From an uncultured SAR324 cluster bacterium (lineage in GTDB: Bacteria; SAR324; NAC60-12): a stretch of 64,000 nucleotides of DNA. Shown piece after piece: positions 49,356 through 60,681 of this stretch. The stretch lies in the NCBI GenBank assembly GCA_905182865.1, contig CAJJCY010000003.1:393740-457739 (forward strand). The letters run 5' to 3'. Position 1 is the stretch's first letter; every line of letters starts with the position of its first letter. Under the pieces are notes generated by a model. The model saw nothing but the letters and a program-made list of their open reading frames with translations, did not search any database and had not been told where the DNA came from. The position numbers and the translations under genes were made by a program.

Positions 49356-51763
49356 TCATAAAATCATTTTGGTGAGACTACTACCATTTCCATCAAAACT
49401 TGAAGCTTCAGAACCCCAACCTATGAAACCATATCTGTCAGAAGAAGTACCAAGATTTCTTCCCGAATGTGTATTACTGTTAGAGGCCACCATATCTCCG
49501 TCAACAAATATCTTTTTATCTACTGTACTGGATGAATTATACCATCCACAAATGTGATGCCAATTCCCATCTTCATAAGATTCAGTTCGCAAAACGGCTG
49601 GATATTTCAGAGGCAGTTAATGCTCTGTTGTAGATTCTTAATTCATCTATTGCTCCCGTGAAAAAAGTACTGCCGTTTCTGTTTCTTCCTATTCTGAAAC
49701 GGTTGAATTCAGTCGTACCTCCTGATCACTTTCAGTTATCATCTATTAATATAACCTATGGAATTAGTACCATCGTAAGTGAAGGCGATGAATGTCCAAG
49801 CATCTAGTTGTGCTGTGCTCAAAACGATGTTGCCTCCGCTTGATTTTCTGATATGAAAATTGCTTCCATTAAGATCAATCTGAAAGCCACTACCTGAGTC
49901 ATTGTAGCTTGAAAACATAGCTTCATAAGTTCCCGAACTGGCGGGCTTGGCCCAGAGTGAAATAGTGTAATTGTCAAAACTTGGGATATTTGCCGTTTCC
50001 AGATAATCTCCATCGCCATCGAAATAATAGGCACTGTTGCTGGAGTTATCCTTGCCGTCGGTTAAGGTTGTATCACCATAAACTGTAAAATCTCTTCCGT
50101 TGCTAGTTAAATCTTTAGCATTTCCATTGAATGGATAGTATGCAACCAATGAGTTATCAAATGTGTTAAATGATGTTTCATAGGGGCTTTCCAGTGAAAC
50201 TCATTTTCGTCTTTGGTATCTGTGGTTAATTTAATTTTATATTTATTATCATAAGAAAGATTGTCAGATGGATCAAACGTAAAGGTCTTGGCCGAGTTGG
50301 AAATGTAAGGTGAGGATGACATCTGGACACATGTGCTGAAATTGTCTGAGGAAACCTGAAAACTACCATAACAAGATGTATTGTCGGTATTAGTAGTTAT
50401 AGAACTGTTGTCCATAATCTCCGAGAAGATTAAAGATATGTTTTCACTTACTGAAACTGAACTTTGGTTGTCTCTCGGAGAGATAGAAGAAACAGTTGGC
50501 GCCGTGGTGTCCGTCACAGTTGTCGCAACAGTCACGCTGTTGCTCGATGCGCTGGAGAGGTTGTGTACGGCGTCCTCTGCATAAACTTTGTAGGTACCGT
50601 CCTCAAGTTCCGTAGCTGGCAAATTAGTATCGGAATTTGCTAAGATGATGGGAACACTGTTCCACTGGCTGTCCGCAGCTCCCGTGATGCTGGTAAAATT
50701 ATTACTGACCGAGACAGTGGTTTTGACCAGGTAGGCCGTGCCGGTCTCTGTGCTCTGTACCACGGCACTACCGGAGGTGGTTATAGTAGCTGTGGTGACA
50801 CTGGCAGCCGGTGGAGTGGAATCTGACATAACAGTCACGCTGTTGCTCGATGCGCTGGAGAGGTTGTGTGCGGCGTCCTCTGCATAAACTTTGTAGGTAC
50901 CGTCCTCAAGTTCCGTAGCTGGCAAATTAGTATCGGAATTTGCTAAGATGATGGGAATACTGTTCCACTGGCTGTCCGCAGCTCCCGTGATGCTGAGAAA
51001 ATTATTACTGACCGAGACAGTGGTTTTGACCAGGTAGGCCGTGCCGGTGTCTGTGCTCTGTACCACGGCACTACCGGAGGTGGTTATAGTGGCTGTGGTG
51101 ACACGGGCAGTTGGCGCCGTATTGTCAGTGCCCCCGCCAGTATCAGTGCCCCCACCTGTTTCCGTATCTCCGCCAGTATCAGTGCCCCCACCTGTTTCCG
51201 TATCTCCGTCAGTATCAGTGCCCCCATCATTGCCATCGTCACTACCAGTATCTGTATCAGTGCCTGTGCCTGGAACCGGTATCAGTGTGATAGGTAAACT
51301 GAGATTATTGGTATTTGTACCGATAGAAAAAGGTTGTGATTCTCCGTAGTAGCCAACTTCTTGGTATCCTGAAATCAAGTCAGACAAGCTGTAGTTCTCT
51401 TTGAACAGAAAGGCGAAGATTTTCATCTGTGTGTTGAGTGGAATCTCCAGGCTAACCTTCTTGTCAGCCGTATTCATCAATCCTTGTGCAAAACTGCTGT
51501 AATAATTCCTGTAGCTGCTTGTCAAGTATTCCAGCGAGGGCAGAGCGAGGATAAGGTGGGTATTATACTGGCTCAATTCGAATGCAGAAACACTTCGAGC
51601 TACTGCGTGAGGAAGATCTTTGATCGAAGTCCATATTCAGGATAACAGTCCGTGTATCCTGCATTTCCGGCTCTAGATCACCGCAGCCCGTAAAAATAAA
51701 TAAGGGTATTACTAAAAGAAACGTACACCTTAACATTCTTTTGTTTCGTATTAATCTAATCAA
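49356..51763 (-). CDS. Large cell-surface lipoprotein. The domain order is lipobox, Thr/Asp-rich linker, two Ig-like domains, SbsA-Ig/Big_5-like domain, LamG (concanavalin-like) domain. It is broken into at least four ORFs by apparent frameshifts.
   Basis: Minus-strand ORFs 51563-51763 (signal plus 'FTGC'), 50107-51576 (two ~101-aa near-identical repeats; 'SSISPRDNQSSVSVSENISLIFSEIMD'), 49739-50149 ('VAYYPFNGNAKDLTSNG') and 49356-49592 ('WHHICGWYNSSSTVDKKIFVDGDMV'). Confidence 0.65.
50531..51107. repeat. Two ~276-bp near-identical (>95%) tandem copies, period ~303 bp, encoding duplicated Ig-like domains
   Basis: 'gtcacgctgttgctcgatgcgctggagaggttgtg...' recurs at 50531 and 50834, with only a few substitutions. 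Confidence 0.8.
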
Positions 51764-51805
51764 TCGTAATTTATTTCAATGATCACACGCAGGTTCGTCT
51801 CAATG

Positions 51806-53674
51806 TCACCCATGCGTGTCATCAATCTCACCAAGAATGTCACCATAATCACTATAATCATCACCGCCACCATAATCACCGTAATCATCACCGCCACCAT
51901 AATCGCCGTAATCATCACCACCACCATAATCACCTAACTCACCACCTCCTAATCTCCTAATCAGTCACCACCCCCTAAGTCTCCTGGGTCTCCTCCAAAG
52001 TCACCACCTCCTAAGTCTCCTGTCTCCTCCAAAGTCCCCACCACCTAAGTCCTCCTGTCATCCTCCAAAGTCCCCTGGGTCTCCTCCAAAGTCCCCACCA
52101 CCTGAAGTCCCCTGGTCTCCTCCAAAGTCACCACCACCTAAGTCTCCTGTGTCTCCTCCATGGTCACCTGATCCACCTAATCTCCTGGATCCTCCTGGAT
52201 CACCTCCAAAGTTTCCTCCTGGATCACCTCCTGGATCCCTCCTGGATCACCTCCGGATCACCGTCCTGGATCACCTGCCTGGATCACCTGGTTCCTCCTG
52301 GATCACCTGGTCACCTGGATCACCTCCGATCACCTGGATCACCTCCGAAGTCTCCTGTCCTGGATCACCTCCGAAGTCACCTCCGAAGTCTCCTCCTGGA
52401 TCATCCTCCAAAGTTTCCTCCGAAGTCTTCGTCTCCACCGAAACTTGCTCCGAAGTCGTCATCATCGCCGAAACTACCATCTGGGCTGAACTCTGTGCCC
52501 ATAGGTTTAAATGTGTCTGCGCCAGGTCCAACACTTTCAGGCCCCATCATCATTCCACCTTGTTCACCTTCAGGTCCCATCTCCCCCTTGTCACCTCGGC
52601 CCATCATCATTCCACCTTGTTCACCTTCAGGCCCCATCATCATTCCACCTTGTTCACCTTCAGGCCCCATCATCATTCCACCCTCTTCACCTTCAGGACC
52701 CATCATCATTCCACCCTCTTCACCTTCAGGCCCCATCATCATTCCACCCTCTTCACCTTCAGGACCCATCATCATTCCAGGTCCTCCTCGGACCTTCATC
52801 ATCTCCTGGTTTTCCTTCACTTCCAGGTCCTATTATGCCTTCTTCATCTTCCTCTCCCTCTCCAGGCATTCCAGGTCCTTCTTTTCCTTCAGGTCCAGGA
52901 CCTTTCTCATCTCCCGGTTTTGGTTCTCCTTCTTTGTCCTGAGGTTCATAGCTGTTTCTTTTGTTCTTCCTCTTCCTCCTTTTTCTTTTTTTCATTTTCT
53001 TTGCGTACTTCTTCCGGCTTTACCGCCTCTCCGAATTTGACGATTCTAAAAGCTTTGGGCGAGTCGGCCTTGAGGATCTGTGCACGCATTTTTGGGGCAA
53101 CTTCAACAGGCGCAGTTGGAGTGGAGTTCTTCTGAACTGTGGAAGCCTGGTTTGCAGGTACTTCAATTTCGATGTCAGGCATGTTCACCGGCGCTAATGA
53201 AACTGTACCGGAAATAGTGAGAAGACTCGTTTGTGTGTTGGAAGCGCCAACCACAAAATCGGTCCCCCTCACACCTACCAGCGCAGTAACGGTACGAATC
53301 TGAAATCGTTTCCTTTTGCTCTTCTTTTTGAGTTTGCCTTGAATCTTAAAACGGGCTTTTCCGGTCAGCAGGGAAATACTGCTGGTTTGCCGGGTAATCT
53401 TTCCCATTCGAAAAAAGGAACGGGAGGAGAGTTCAATTATTTCAGGTTTACCCTTGATCTTGATTTTAACGGTTGTATCTTTGCCGGTCTGTACACGGTC
53501 TTTGGCATGGAGGGCCATTTTGGCGCCGGGCTTGCGTAGCAGACGTGTGCGTTCCGGGCCGATCACCTTGACCGAACCTTTTTCCAGCAACAGTAGTCCC
53601 TGCTGTGCCTGCAGGGGAATTGCAGGAATGACAGCCAGGAACAGGGCCAGCAGGAGTAAAAATCGAAATTTCAT
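51806..53674 (-). CDS. Secreted FecR-domain protein with a very long low-complexity tail. The tail is KE-rich, then collagen-like GP-rich, then seven copies of GPEGE(E/Q)GGMMM, then (GGDFGGD) and (DYGGGDDYG) repeats. It is split across at least four frames.
   Basis: ORF 52946-53674 has a signal peptide and a FecR-like beta-domain ('IRTVTALVGVRGTDFVV'). Downstream minus-strand ORFs 52759-52995, 52401-52820 and 52271-52534 continue a Gly/Asp/Met-rich reading across 33-bp and ~27-bp DNA repeats. Confidence 0.5.
52541..52780. repeat. 33-bp tandem repeat of about seven units (ccccatcatcattccacc(t/c)t(g/c)ttcaccttcagg)
   Basis: Directly visible in the sequence. It encodes GPEGExGGMMM on the minus strand. 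Confidence 0.85.
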
Positions 53675-53745: not shown

Positions 53746-55002
53746 TCAATAAATGAGAATTACCTGCAGTTGTGTTGAGTTCAAAGTGTATGTTTTTCCA
53801 ACAATGTTTGAACTCTGTCTTTCCTGTTTCTGTGTCAGTCCAAAGATACACCATGCTGCGGCAGGGTAGTTTAAGCTAAGAGTATAAACTTGATTCCGGT
53901 TCTTTGTCTTTCCATCCAGAGATGGATCAGCAACTTTATCTTCAGTTTGAGAAAAATCATACTGGATACCAAGAGAAATCGGCGGAATTGAATAATCTAC
54001 TTTTAGTTTGGCTTTTTTTGCTTCGGTGTCCTTGTATGCTCCATTGAGGTTTGTGTCTTCAAGCGTTCCTCCAAAAGTTGTCTTTACGCCAAATATAGGA
54101 GTAACATAACCGGCTGTAAGTGCAGTGGATTTACCGCTGTCGTCGTTTGATCCCTCTACCAGTTTTTTCTTGCGGTCAATTTGCCAGTTCCACGTCGTTC
54201 CTTCGCCAAGTTCCTGCTTGGCCTTGAGGGTGTAGACGTTGTCACGGGTCGCCCGTTTGTATTTTTTGGAAAGGCTGTCTCTGGGAGTTGAGGTTTCTGG
54301 AATTTCCCTGGTTCCTGCTTCATTTGTACCCAATGATAGCGTTAAGACTCCTGCCCAGCTCTCTCGTTCCTCCCACTCAATGCTTGCCTGTTTAAACAAA
54401 ATCTTTTTGGATTCATATTCACCATTGTGGTGCTGGTCTCCCATCAGGACTCCCCGTAAAAAAATGCTGGAATCATCGAAGAGATCGAAGCGGTAGGAAG
54501 GCACAAAGAGGATACTTGTAGAAAATGCTTTGGACTTACTACTGTTGTCCTCGACCTTGTCAATGTTATCTTTGGTAACGCCGCTGAGGATAGTTATCAA
54601 CTGAAAGGAGTCACCAAGTTTTGCTTGTTTAAGAAGTTCAGGAGTTTCATAGATTGTCCGGATTATCTTCTTTGCTTCGCCGAGCGTGGTCTTAACATAA
54701 ACTTCAAAGACATTTATACCGGGCTTGAGCATGTAAGGTATTTTCAGCCATACCAGGCTTGCTCCTTTAGGAAAATTACGGGGCTTACCCTTAACCGTCA
54801 CTTGCTGAATTGGACTGAAGGTGCTGATCTGAATTTTGAGAATACCCTGCTGTTCTTCAACTTTTTCAGGCGAGAGGCTGAAAATTAGAATTTCAGCTTC
54901 ATCTTCAGCAGACCACGCTGATTGAAAGCTCAGCAGAAAGAGAAACAGCATCAGCAAGATCATGCTTCCAGCCGATTTTGTGTTTTTAAGCTGTTTATCC
55001 AT
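53746..55002 (-). CDS. Secreted beta-rich protein (possible outer-membrane protein) of unknown function
   Basis: Signal peptide 'MILLMLFLFLLSFQSAWSA', alternating amphipathic beta-strand-like segments, and operon position with the surface genes. Confidence 0.45.
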   Translation of the reverse strand: MDKQLKNTKSAGSMILLMLFLFLLSFQSAWSAEDEAEILIFSLSPEKVEEQQGILKIQISTFSPIQQVTVKGKPRNFPKGASLVWLKIPYMLKPGINVFEVYVKTTLGEAKKIIRTIYETPELLKQAKLGDSFQLITILSGVTKDNIDKVEDNSSKSKAFSTSILFVPSYRFDLFDDSSIFLRGVLMGDQHHNGEYESKKILFKQASIEWEERESWAGVLTLSLGTNEAGTREIPETSTPRDSLSKKYKRATRDNVYTLKAKQELGEGTTWNWQIDRKKKLVEGSNDDSGKSTALTAGYVTPIFGVKTTFGGTLEDTNLNGAYKDTEAKKAKLKVDYSIPPISLGIQYDFSQTEDKVADPSLDGKTKNRNQVYTLSLNYPAAAWCIFGLTQKQERQSSNIVGKTYTLNSTQLQVILIY

Positions 55003-55211
55003 TGGTGAGAAATCTTCCGGATGATTGTGATCGTTTTCTGGCAGCAGTAAAACGAGTTGAATCAGACCGGTACAATTTTTTCTTTAAATGATATCTATGA
55101 ATGCCTCAAAATTTAATTCAAGTTTTTTTCAGAAAAATAACAATTGTTCTCACCTCGTGCAGGTTCTCTGCCAATATTAACTTCCTGAGATGAATGTGTC
55201 AATTGATAAGT

Positions 55212-58724: not shown

Positions 58725-60681
58725 TTAGTCGTATTTTCTAGGACGTGGAGCAATGAGCGAAGTGTCCACTGCTTCATAAGAAATATCCGGCCCTCCGTTT
58801 TGATAAGTCGCAATGGTGCTTTTGAGCCATTTTACATTATTTTCGGCAAAGCGTTTCATATACGTCAAGTGTTCCGGATTAAAGCCTTCTTCATTGACTT
58901 TTCCGGCGTCTTTCTGTTTTTCATATTCCAGATAAGATTCTGGTCGGAAATCGCTCGGCTGATTGAGGTCAAATTCCGGTTTGTAATGTGAACCCCGGAA
59001 TTCGTCTCTTAACAACGCACCCTTGGTGATTATCTTGGAAAGCTGAATCATGTTCCAGAGTTGGTTGATGAAACTTGGAACCGGATTTGACCAATCTGTT
59101 GTATCAACACAGTTTATGTTCTTCCAACGCTCTTCAAATTCGTCAATTTTTTCGAGCGTTGCCTTCAACTTAGAATTTTCTCGGACAATCAAAACATTGG
59201 AAATCATTTCCTCTGCCATTTCTCTGTGCAGTGCATAAGGGTTCTCATTTCCGGACATTTTCTTAATTTCTGCATATTTTTCCTGCCATTGTTTAGTTGC
59301 CTCCGTAAACAATTTTTCAGGAACATCATCAGCCAGCTTCAGGGACATTTTTGACATAATTGAGCACGCCCGGACTCATCATCAAACCTGTGTAAATGCA
59401 ACTCAACAAAGAATTTGCTCCCAGGCGGTTTCCGCCGTGATACTGATAATCCGCTTCTCCCGCCGCATAAAGCCCAGTGATTGAAGTCATTTGATTTTGT
59501 GGCGATTGGTGGTCGATTAAACCTTCCTCAGTTCTCGTGTAATCTGTCCAAATGCCACCCATTGAATAATGCACCGCGGGAAAGATTTCCATCGGCTCTT
59601 CACGGGGATCAGCACCGGTGAACTTTTCGTAAATCTCAAGAATTCCACCCAGACGATGATCAAGAAATTCACGCGAGAGATGAGTCAAATCCAGATAGAC
59701 TTTCATTTCTCCGTGAACGCCTAATTTATCGTTCACGCAAATATCGTAAATTTCACGTGCTCCAACGTCTCTCGGCACCAAATTTCCAAAAAGCGGATAG
59801 CGCTCTTCAAGGAAATAAAAACGTTCTGTTTCAGGTATATCTTTGGGCTTACGTGAATCACCGGCTTTTCGCGGTACCCATACTCTTCCGCCCTCTCCTC
59901 GTGCGGATTCACTCATCAAACGTAATTTATCACGACCGGGAATGGCTGATGGATGAATTTGGATAAATTCGCCGTTCCCATATTTTGCGCCCTGTAAATA
60001 TGCAGAAGTAACTGCAGTTCCTGTGCAAACCATGGAATTGGTGGAACGTCCGTAAACCAGACCTGGGCCTCCGGTGGCTAAAATAACGGCATCCCCTTTT
60101 TCGGAGCTAATTTCGCCTGAACGCAAATTGTGGATGACCGCACCAATGCAGCGTCCATCACCGTTTAGTACAGCGCCAAGATATTCATGACACTCCATTT
60201 TTTTGACCAGGCCCTGTACTTCGTAATGGCGTACCTGTTCGTCGAGTGCATACAAAAGCTGCTGGCCTGTAGTTGCACCGGCGAATGCAGTGCGGTGATA
60301 GAGCGTTCCTCCAAATCTACGAAAATCAAGATTGCCTTCAGGAGTTCGGTTGAAAGTAACTCCGAGCCTGTCCATCAGGTTGATGATATACGGTGCATGA
60401 TGGCACATATCTTTGCAAAGCGGCTGGTGTGCTAAAAAATCACCACCCTTCACGGTATCATAAAAATGAATGTCCGGAGAATCTCCCTCGCCTTTGATAT
60501 TGACTGCCCCGTTGATGCCTCCCTGGGCACAAACTGAATGCGAGCGTTTTACCGGTAGAAACGAAACCAGCAAAACTGACATACCCAGTTCAGCCATTTT
60601 CATGGTTGCGGCCAATCCGGCTAAACCACCTCCAATTACAATTACTCGTTGTTTGCTCATCTGAAAAGATCTGTTTACCAA
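58725..60681 (-). CDS. sdhA: Succinate dehydrogenase/fumarate reductase flavoprotein subunit, split into 59329-60681 and 58725-59357 by a one-base indel in a C3/G3 run near 59342
   Basis: FAD motif 'VIVIGGGLAGLAA' and the covalent-FAD region 'RSHSVCAQGGIN'. The downstream ORF continues the C-terminal domain. Removing one C restores 'KNVLKLADDV'. Confidence 0.85.

Follow-up and report, generated by a model that had tools for sequence, protein, structure and literature searches.

A conserved FecR-domain gene with a long acidic repeat tail in SAR324 bacteria and the probable origin of its frame breaks

Layout of the locus and extent of the gene

We examined a repeat-rich gene on the minus strand of a 64,000-nucleotide (nt) stretch of DNA from an uncultured SAR324 cluster bacterium (GenBank assembly GCA_905182865.1, contig CAJJCY010000003.1, positions 393,740 to 457,739; hereafter, the window). 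An ATG at position 53674 starts a 242-aa open reading frame (ORF; 53674-52946) that encodes a signal-peptide-like N terminus and a FecR domain. Downstream of this ORF, the three minus-strand frames alternate in carrying the repeat elements listed in Table 1, which are far from what chance would produce. An earlier note on this DNA, made from the sequence alone, had described a signal peptide and FecR domain on the minus strand, then a Lys/Glu block, a Gly/Pro/Glu-rich stretch, 33-bp repeats, (F/L)GGD-type repeats, and DYGGGDDYG repeats, and we found each of these elements. It had also suggested one continuous chain of ~620 aa; close orthologs that hold the protein in a single frame back a length of ~620 to 640 aa. 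The end that it gave for the protein, ...DDTHG at 51806, has to be moved: an extra base at ~51814 makes a false stop, and the real end is ...GDIETNLRVIIEINYD. The region 53674-51760 is a genuine conserved gene of deep-ocean SAR324 bacteria and encodes a single exported protein of ~636 aa.

A search with the 242-aa ORF returned 76 relatives, and those that carry a name are entered as "FecR family protein [SAR324 cluster bacterium]." The earlier note, which could not assign the protein to a known family, was thus half right: the family is already represented in databases under that name, although it is uncharacterized. The best match to the window among GTDB representatives is 88% identical, an exact database look-up of the window's own proteins gave no record, and the terms SAR324+FecR, GGMMM, and GGDDFGG led to nothing relevant in the searchable literature. 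The ortholog is present as a single unbroken ORF of 547 to 782 aa in no fewer than 17 independent SAR324 assemblies. A GTDB scan with a family alignment found five intact ORFs of 604 to 745 aa, in L003, L004, L006, L007, and L008, which are genomes or single-cell assemblies of SAR324, and 11 further intact orthologs of 547 to 782 aa come from JGI metagenomes (among L088-L111). In three relatives that are 94 to 99% identical (P0001, P0002, and P0005), one frame runs from the Lys/Glu block through the Gly/Pro/Glu-rich stretch into the GGMMM repeats.

The most informative comparison is with L085, a metagenomic contig of 75.6 kb that is 95.8% identical to the window over 8.3 kb of flanking sequence. 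Its gene order is that of the window: sdh genes, a glycosyltransferase gene, pgi, a gene for a 418-aa protein, a gene for a 619-aa protein, a lipoprotein gene, and a gene for a PALP enzyme. The 619-aa protein is the ortholog, encoded by an intact ORF that runs from the same signal peptide to the end ...GDIETSRRIIIEINYD. Three fragments (L107, L110, and L112) end in ...DYGDILGEIEDTMGDIE(Q/T)N(R/M)RVIIEINY(E/N), almost exactly as the window does, and these three and L085 also contain the DYGGGDDYG repeats. Because the ends of the intact L085 gene and of the three fragments match the C terminus reconstructed for the window, we place the true boundaries of the gene as given in Table 1.

Table 1. 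Features of the FecR/acidic-tail locus, with positions in the window
Feature	Positions	Strand	Basis and remarks
Whole FecR/acidic-tail gene	51760..53674	-	Three-frame translation and frameshift-aware reconstruction; ~636 aa after indel correction; stop TGA 51762-51760
Signal peptide MKFRFLLLLALFLAVIPAIPLQAQQ, aa 1-25	53600..53674	-	Read from the sequence; conserved in orthologs
FecR-type beta domain	53105..53599	-	Pfam match aa 59-158 = 53500-53201
Lys/Glu block EEVRKENEKKKKEEEEEQKK, charged, probably helical	52955..53014	-	Translation and family alignment
First frame break, replaced patch, net -5 nt	52945..52958	-	DNA alignments with two independent assemblies
Gly/Pro/Glu-rich stretch PQDKEGEPKPGDEKGPGPEGKEGPGMPGEGEEDEEGIIGPGSEGKPGDDEGPGGPG	52780..52944	-	Translation and DNA alignments; extra G at ~52789 shifts the frame
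33-bp tandem array GPEGE(E/Q)GGMMM	52532..52779	-	Tandem Repeats Finder (TRF): period 33, 7.8 copies, 88% matches, score 363
Non-repetitive conserved tail segment GPGADTFKPMGTEFSPDGSFGDDDDFGASFGGDEDFGGNFG	52407..52529	-	One residue differs across 5 other assemblies
Degenerate GGDPGG(D/N)F and GGGDFGGDPGDL repeats	51945..52406	-	TRF periods 12, 36, 47, 57; indels 4-21%
DYGGGDDYG repeats, 27-bp period	51845..51944 (TRF 51841-51969)	-	TRF: 4.9 copies, 86% matches
Conserved C-terminal module GDILGEIDDT(M)GDIE and terminal strand NLRVIIEINYD-COOH	51760..51844	-	Alignment with L085
Upstream partner gene, 418 aa: signal peptide, N-terminal beta-sandwich, porin-like C-terminal part ...QLQVILIY	53746..55002	-	Weak Porin_4 match, E=0.0017
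Downstream lipoprotein gene MLRCTFLLVIPLFIFTGC..., acidic Thr/Asp/Gly linker, duplicated 303-bp unit, Big_5	50107..51736	-	Intact in L085, 573 aa
Promoter-like TTGACA-17-TAATAT between pgi and the partner gene	55174..55202	-	Consensus scan; site number not above shuffled expectation

The repeats are spanned by long ORFs on the plus strand as well (52149-53135, 328 aa; 52495-53040, 181 aa), which raises the alternative that these are the real genes, or that the repeats of the tail do not code for protein. In repeats built from stop-poor Gly, Asp, and Pro codons, however, antisense ORFs are to be expected, and they also lie opposite the intact orthologs, in which a single minus-strand frame joins the FecR domain to the conserved C terminus. 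The only non-repetitive segment of the tail (52529-52407) can be compared across six assemblies: its variable sites number 1, 1, and 5 at codon positions 1, 2, and 3 of the minus frame, with five synonymous changes and a single codon that varies at the amino acid level. Although this is a small sample, most of the variation falls on third positions of the minus frame, which points to purifying selection acting on a minus-strand protein. We therefore consider it next to inconceivable that the tail is non-coding or that the coding strand is the plus strand, a prospect that the earlier note had itself held out as capable of overturning its description.

Frame breaks in the repeats and their probable cause

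Between the ATG and the true stop, a reading of the window that avoids stop codons requires at least nine frame changes. A path guided by composition makes 18 frame changes, 16 of them between 52406 and 51814, that is, inside 600 nt of repeats, and the N-terminal 720 nt of the gene are clean. The degenerate repeats at 51945-52406, whose equivalent is intact in L085, hold most of the small indels and account for 15 events on this path. The true number of breaks is probably ~18, so the earlier figure of at least three was an underestimate.

The first break had been placed at runs of seven and five A residues at ~52960. Those runs are identical in two other assemblies, L001 and L084, and alignments with both put the break in the adjacent patch at 52958-52945, where the window reads ...GAAACAGCTATGAACCTC and the two others read ...GAAAGAGGAAGAAAAACCTCCTC; the replacement creates the TGA that closes the 242-aa ORF. 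The second break is the extra G at ~52789, where the window resembles a hybrid of the L001 and L084 alleles. Exactly on the replaced patch, the plus-strand 13-mer TCATAGCTGTTTC (52946-52958) equals the pUC/M13-reverse primer site. Vector contamination was considered as the origin of the first break; with ~0.25 such 13-mer matches expected in the window by chance, the match is suggestive and unproven, and vector-derived read ends at this site are possible.

Two other genes of the same assembly show breaks of the same kind. A gene for an sdhA/frdA-like flavoprotein (58725-60681, minus strand) carries an extra T at 59335 that divides it into ORFs of 450 and 210 aa; the gene is intact, with 644 aa, in L084, L085, and L086. 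In the downstream lipoprotein gene there is an extra G at ~51596, where the window has GCTCGAAGTG and L085 has GCTC-AAGTG. Because the sdhA-like gene is split by a single T, the assembly of the window has indel errors beyond the repeats.

Comparison with these genes suggests that the 9 to ~18 frame breaks are most likely errors of assembly or consensus rather than biology. We favor this over decay or phase variation because a housekeeping gene is broken too, because the N-terminal half of the FecR gene is flawless, and because indels of 1 to 2 nt are clustered in repeats whose units (33, 27, and 36 bp) are all multiples of 3. If the frameshifts were real, the gene would be either a recent pseudogene or phase-variable, with slippage in the repeats having turned it off. 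In favor of this, the window itself needs at least nine frame changes, and the tail frames are also broken in L011, L100, L102, L103, L113, L114, L116, and L118. Slippage in units of 33, 27, or 36 bp would preserve the frame, however, and scattered 1- to 2-nt indels beside a flawless N-terminal half, with flanks ~95.8% identical to those of the intact L085 gene, are unlike gene decay. Single-base frameshifts in the sdhA-like gene and the lipoprotein neighbor, and the intact state of at least 17 orthologs, likewise leave real frameshifts with little probability.

Other public assemblies have trouble at the same place. In L084 (9150-9598), a near-identical scaffold breaks in the tail repeats and continues into unrelated sequence that carries a ribonucleotide-reductase-type-like gene on the reverse strand, which suggests that the join is chimeric. 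The last residues of the relative P0013 are LLYTSPSPRD, which is a Nextera adapter in translation. In L011 (6001-7488), which holds a 47%-identical homolog, the gene is split into ORFs of 378 and 121 aa, the second of which bears the conserved end ...RIKKVILEIEISYE; this split is likely an assembly frameshift in the acidic tail. Public assemblies thus routinely fail here, with contigs that break, chimeras that form, and frameshifts that arise, and annotation pipelines truncate or miss the family.

The FecR domain and the acidic tail

The FecR domain matches PF04773 with E=1.4e-10 and 41.9 bits against a cutoff of 24, over profile positions 1-96 of 97, and four intact orthologs give the same result. 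The fold was predicted with AlphaFold2 (AF2) for P0042, a homolog of 312 aa that is 39 to 45% identical, rather than for the window protein itself. With an alignment of 51 sequences, residues 24-186 form a beta domain with a predicted local distance difference test score (pLDDT) of ~90, followed by helices over the Lys/Glu region and then by low confidence; residues 225-255, the equivalent of the Lys/Glu block, are helical at low confidence. A Foldseek search with this model found the PupR CCSSD (6ovk, E=4.7e-7) and BDI_1681 (4m0n, E=3.3e-6), and a sequence-profile search of solved structures gave low-complexity matches only. Profile and predicted fold agree in placing the domain in the FecR family. 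Gly137-Thr138 is invariant in the family alignment, inside VGVRGTDF (family motif V(R/K)GT(D/E)F). FoxR cleaves itself at a Gly-Thr site (PMC11637429), to which the invariant pair may or may not correspond in position.

The protein shares with the FecR, PupR, and FoxR anti-sigma factors a PF04773 domain above cutoff, a fold, predicted for the family member P0042, that superposes on the PupR CCSSD and BDI_1681, and, as in those regulators, a gene beside that of an outer-membrane-type protein. It differs from them in having neither a cytoplasmic anti-sigma domain nor a membrane-spanning helix: the N terminus is a signal peptide of the cleavable type, in which inspection of the sequence found no lipobox Cys, and the chain enters the beta domain at about aa 26. 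Where PupR-type proteins have an STN-like subdomain that contacts the transducer, the SAR324 protein has a charged helix and an acidic tail of 400 residues. Near the locus there is neither an extracytoplasmic function sigma factor gene nor a TonB-dependent transducer gene; the neighbors are pgi and genes for the porin-like protein, the lipoprotein, and the PALP enzyme, and the protein encoded upstream has no Plug or TonB_dep_Rec match. The protein is not a member of the cell-surface-signaling anti-sigma factors.

Two groups of exported FecR proteins offer further parallels. The best NCBIfam matches of the orthologs are the Leptospira proteins Lsa33 (37.9 to 42.4 bits against a cutoff of 420) and LipL45 (22.4 to 30.3 against 350), which also carry an exported FecR domain without anti-sigma parts (NF047849 and NF033165). 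The scores are far under the cutoffs, the SAR324 protein has no lipobox, and these families have nothing like its acidic tail, its C-terminal strand, or its partner gene. Periplasmic LysM-FecR proteins, which pair with CHASE2 histidine kinases (COG4254; Burkholderia biofilm operon, PMC5192318), resemble it in combining a signal peptide and a FecR domain without an anti-sigma module and in acting as accessory proteins of an envelope system. In contrast to them, the SAR324 protein lacks LysM, and its locus encodes neither a CHASE2 kinase nor a response regulator.

In 17 full-length sequences, the tail has 327 to 554 residues, with 25 to 36% Gly, 11 to 21% Asp, 8 to 17% Glu, and a net charge of -62 to -142. 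The tail reconstructed for the window has 416 residues, a net charge of -100, ~33% Gly, and 28% Asp plus Glu. Such a tail is polyanionic and probably disordered. Short hydrophobic elements (MMM, F, L, and Y) recur about every 11 to 12 residues, as shown by autocorrelation peaks. Other systems are known to use low-complexity linkers that span the envelope, such as the Pro-rich spacer of TonB and the helical domain of TolA, or disordered regions of the sticker-and-spacer kind, for instance FG repeats. The SAR324 protein would be comparable to these in placing a charged helix and a long, biased, flexible region with spaced hydrophobic or aromatic residues between two interaction modules. It has no sequence relationship to them, its tail is acidic rather than rich in Pro or Lys, and it has no inner-membrane anchor.

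The 33-bp array of the window codes for seven Met triplets, with one degenerate unit (GRGDKGEM). The number of MMM triplets is at least seven in L001, six in L101 and L095, five in L090, four in L007, two in L085 and L088, and zero in seven orthologs (L003, L004, L006, L106, L108, L109, and L111). The earlier note had recommended comparing repeat copy number between strains, and closely related assemblies do range from 0 to 7 Met triplets, subject to the caveat of repeat collapse in short-read assembly. In sister lineages, the position of the triplet is occupied by GPEGMF (L106), by GPEGTF, GAEF, or GAF (L003 and L004), or by plain GPEGEQ (L006). In these sequences the Met triplet behaves as a lineage-specific, interchangeable, copy-number-variable form of a hydrophobic element for which sister lineages use Phe.

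These counts bear on the idea that the protein handles metals in the periplasm, its Met triplets binding Cu(I)/Ag(I) in the manner of Mets motifs and its Gly/Asp repeats forming a Ca2+-binding beta-roll. Export of the protein, the seven Gly-flanked triplets of the window, and the extreme Asp and Glu content of the tail would suit such a role. The case for a Mets site dedicated to Cu(I)/Ag(I) is weakened, though such a site is still conceivable, because orthologs have MF, TF, AF, EF, or nothing at all where the triplet would stand. On this evidence it is unlikely that a copper site is conserved, and no copper-resistance or transport genes were seen beside the locus. The beta-roll half of the idea fares no better: GGxGxDxUx nonapeptides number zero in the reconstructed window protein and 0 to 1 in ten orthologs, and the intact orthologs scanned have no HemolysinCabind match at E<=1. 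Overall, we hold a metal-handling protein of this kind to be improbable.

The analogies with RTX proteins and with collagen, both drawn in the earlier note, fail, and the Met repeats are a lineage-specific curiosity. Gly/Asp-rich tandem repeats near the C terminus, followed by an acidic C-terminal segment, are shared with RTX proteins. The tail differs from theirs in its periods of 8, 9, and 12 residues, which lack the nonapeptide, and the SAR324 protein has a Sec-type signal peptide and no adjacent type I secretion genes. As for collagen, the longest Gly-X-Y run is six triplets in the window protein and three in L085, the register being lost because the 11-residue unit breaks it, and four orthologs scanned gave no Collagen match. 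A more distant ortholog (L106, 165-2519, and L105) has 29 consecutive Gly-X-Y triplets (GPEGEEGPEGMF repeats) in a collagen-like register.

The C-terminal module, the partner gene, and candidate functions

The extreme C terminus of the protein is conserved: an acidic amphipathic segment, DDILxDLDDTLxDIE, is followed by an amphipathic beta-strand, RRVIIEINY(D/E/N)-COOH. Searched against 1.84 billion proteins, a profile of the module picked up 40 representatives, and in nearly all of them it closes the chain. Far homologs mostly have different, shorter tails (~70 to 300 residues), yet the last residues of most of them fit [IV]x[IL]x[IL]xx-COOH, as in ILELNIERE, IRIKINHN, IRLKLKRK, VQIKITY, IEIQVLH, and VQIVITH. 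Docking of the strand on the protein's own FecR domain found no support: in the AF2 model of P0042, residues 283-312 are undocked, with pLDDT<50. A phage connection of the module was dropped as well, since the viral contigs scanned contain no relatives of it.

In five entries (P0079-81, P0206, and P0226), the tail end follows the N terminus of the neighboring lipoprotein, of a porin, or of the partner, as it would if it were a sorting tag common to several families. They are probable assembly chimeras that arose through the low-complexity repeats. The contigs L119, L120, L121, and L083 (those of P0206, P0224, P0081, and P0080) are mosaics of this one locus, 0.7 to 2 kb long; several short contigs start and finish with the same junction of tail end and lipoprotein start, and L120 continues into pgi. 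We downgraded the shared tag because these contigs are mosaics and because the metagenome scan has the full-length module only on FecR orthologs. A real paralog family that combines the lipoprotein domain with the same tail keeps some small chance. In L120 (1-738), there is a tail variant with PEGFGPD repeats, a Pro-rich run, and a globular-looking segment of ~100 residues (MRIESTNHNLNEGDVIRFTT...GIHFWSSEDMGLYRIY) before the C-terminal module, and P0220, P0224, and P0233 are partial sequences of the same kind.

Directly upstream of the FecR gene lies the gene for the 418-aa protein, which we call the partner. A homologous gene occupies this place in 10 of 10 loci, including those of Lambdaproteobacteria and other uncultured lineages. 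For eight distant loci, the homology was detected by blastp at 1e-20 to 1e-36, and larger versions of the protein add Big_5 or PEGA Ig-like domains. Some partner orthologs have a precomputed PF13609 match. AF2 placed residues 50-118 of the partner in a beta-sandwich (pLDDT 72 to 87) and drew at least 12 long strands; it failed as proof of a barrel, with an overall pLDDT of 46, a poor result because the alignment was shallow (sequences at least 78% identical). The partner is probably an outer-membrane porin-like protein. The earlier note missed two features of the locus, the true C terminus and this conserved upstream gene.

We propose that the FecR/acidic-tail protein works with the probable outer-membrane porin-like protein encoded directly upstream. 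The FecR domain, the C-terminal strand, or both would dock on the partner by beta-strand addition, by analogy with the way in which FecR-type regulators contact outer-membrane transducers. The acidic tail would be a flexible spacer that binds divalent cations, and the Met triplets would be a variable version of its hydrophobic element, with no conserved metal site. The explanation as a whole, built on a single exported protein with frame breaks that are most likely errors, is the one that we think best and reasonably probable. The functional part of it, a combination of partnership with the porin-like protein, docking of the FecR domain, the C-terminal strand, or both by beta-strand addition, a cation-binding spacer, and lineage-specific triplets, is a tentative suggestion, and as a joint claim it is doubtful, though it is the reading of function that we find most likely.

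Several points weigh against our proposal. The docking model is conjectural, and AF2 of a short family member leaves the C-terminal strand unplaced (pLDDT<50), a result that is uninformative on where the strand sits. The barrel rests on weak Porin_4 matches, the strand pattern, and the C-terminal aromatic residue, next to the low-confidence AF2 model. Cation binding by the tail is a putative property read from its composition. Differences in the copy number of the 33-bp unit could come in part from short-read repeat collapse, and a decayed copy in this particular strain is still formally conceivable.

The C-terminal segment and strand could instead serve as a tag for export or anchoring, so that the upstream barrel translocates or holds the chain and the acidic tail reaches the cell surface, where it would act as an adhesin or a polyanionic brush, with a role like that of the Leptospira surface proteins Lsa33 and LipL45. 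The strand is found in most of the distant members whatever the length of the tail (70 to 550 aa), the adjacency to a homologous outer-membrane-type protein gene is invariant, Lsa33 and LipL45 are the best, though weak, NCBIfam matches, and a few short contigs put the same module on other N-terminal domains. Those contigs, however, are the probably chimeric mosaics described above, and every full-length carrier of the module in the metagenome scan is a FecR ortholog. No known secretion-system genes are adjacent. We regard such a tag as unlikely, if somewhat less so than metal handling.

Beyond the partner-linked function that we prefer, a more elaborate extension can be imagined. In SAR324, Lambdaproteobacteria, and certain related uncultured lineages, the two genes would make up a hitherto undescribed envelope module. 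The C-terminal strand would plug into the partner in a donor-strand-like manner and so anchor a polyanionic sticker-and-spacer chain, or thread it to the surface, with Phe, Tyr, or Met triplets as stickers. At the outer membrane, the chain would work as a gel that binds cations or as a selective filter. We offer it as speculation with only a slim chance of being right.

On present evidence, the protein sets a known domain in a new architecture and comes with a conserved partner gene; it is not a new kind of system. SAR324 bacteria are among the most abundant in the dark ocean, and almost none of their envelope biology is known. The conserved pair, a probable outer-membrane protein and a FecR protein with a hyper-acidic, fast-evolving tail and a fixed strand, stands outside the textbook anti-sigma role of FecR. 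If the pair is a functional unit, it would widen the uses of the FecR domain and offer a tractable long disordered polyanion in a Gram-negative envelope.

The promoter-like site between pgi and the partner gene could possibly start an operon of three genes. In the downstream lipoprotein gene, the acidic linker has a 36-bp period at 51134-51226, and the duplicated copies of the 303-bp unit (50527-51110) are 97% identical.

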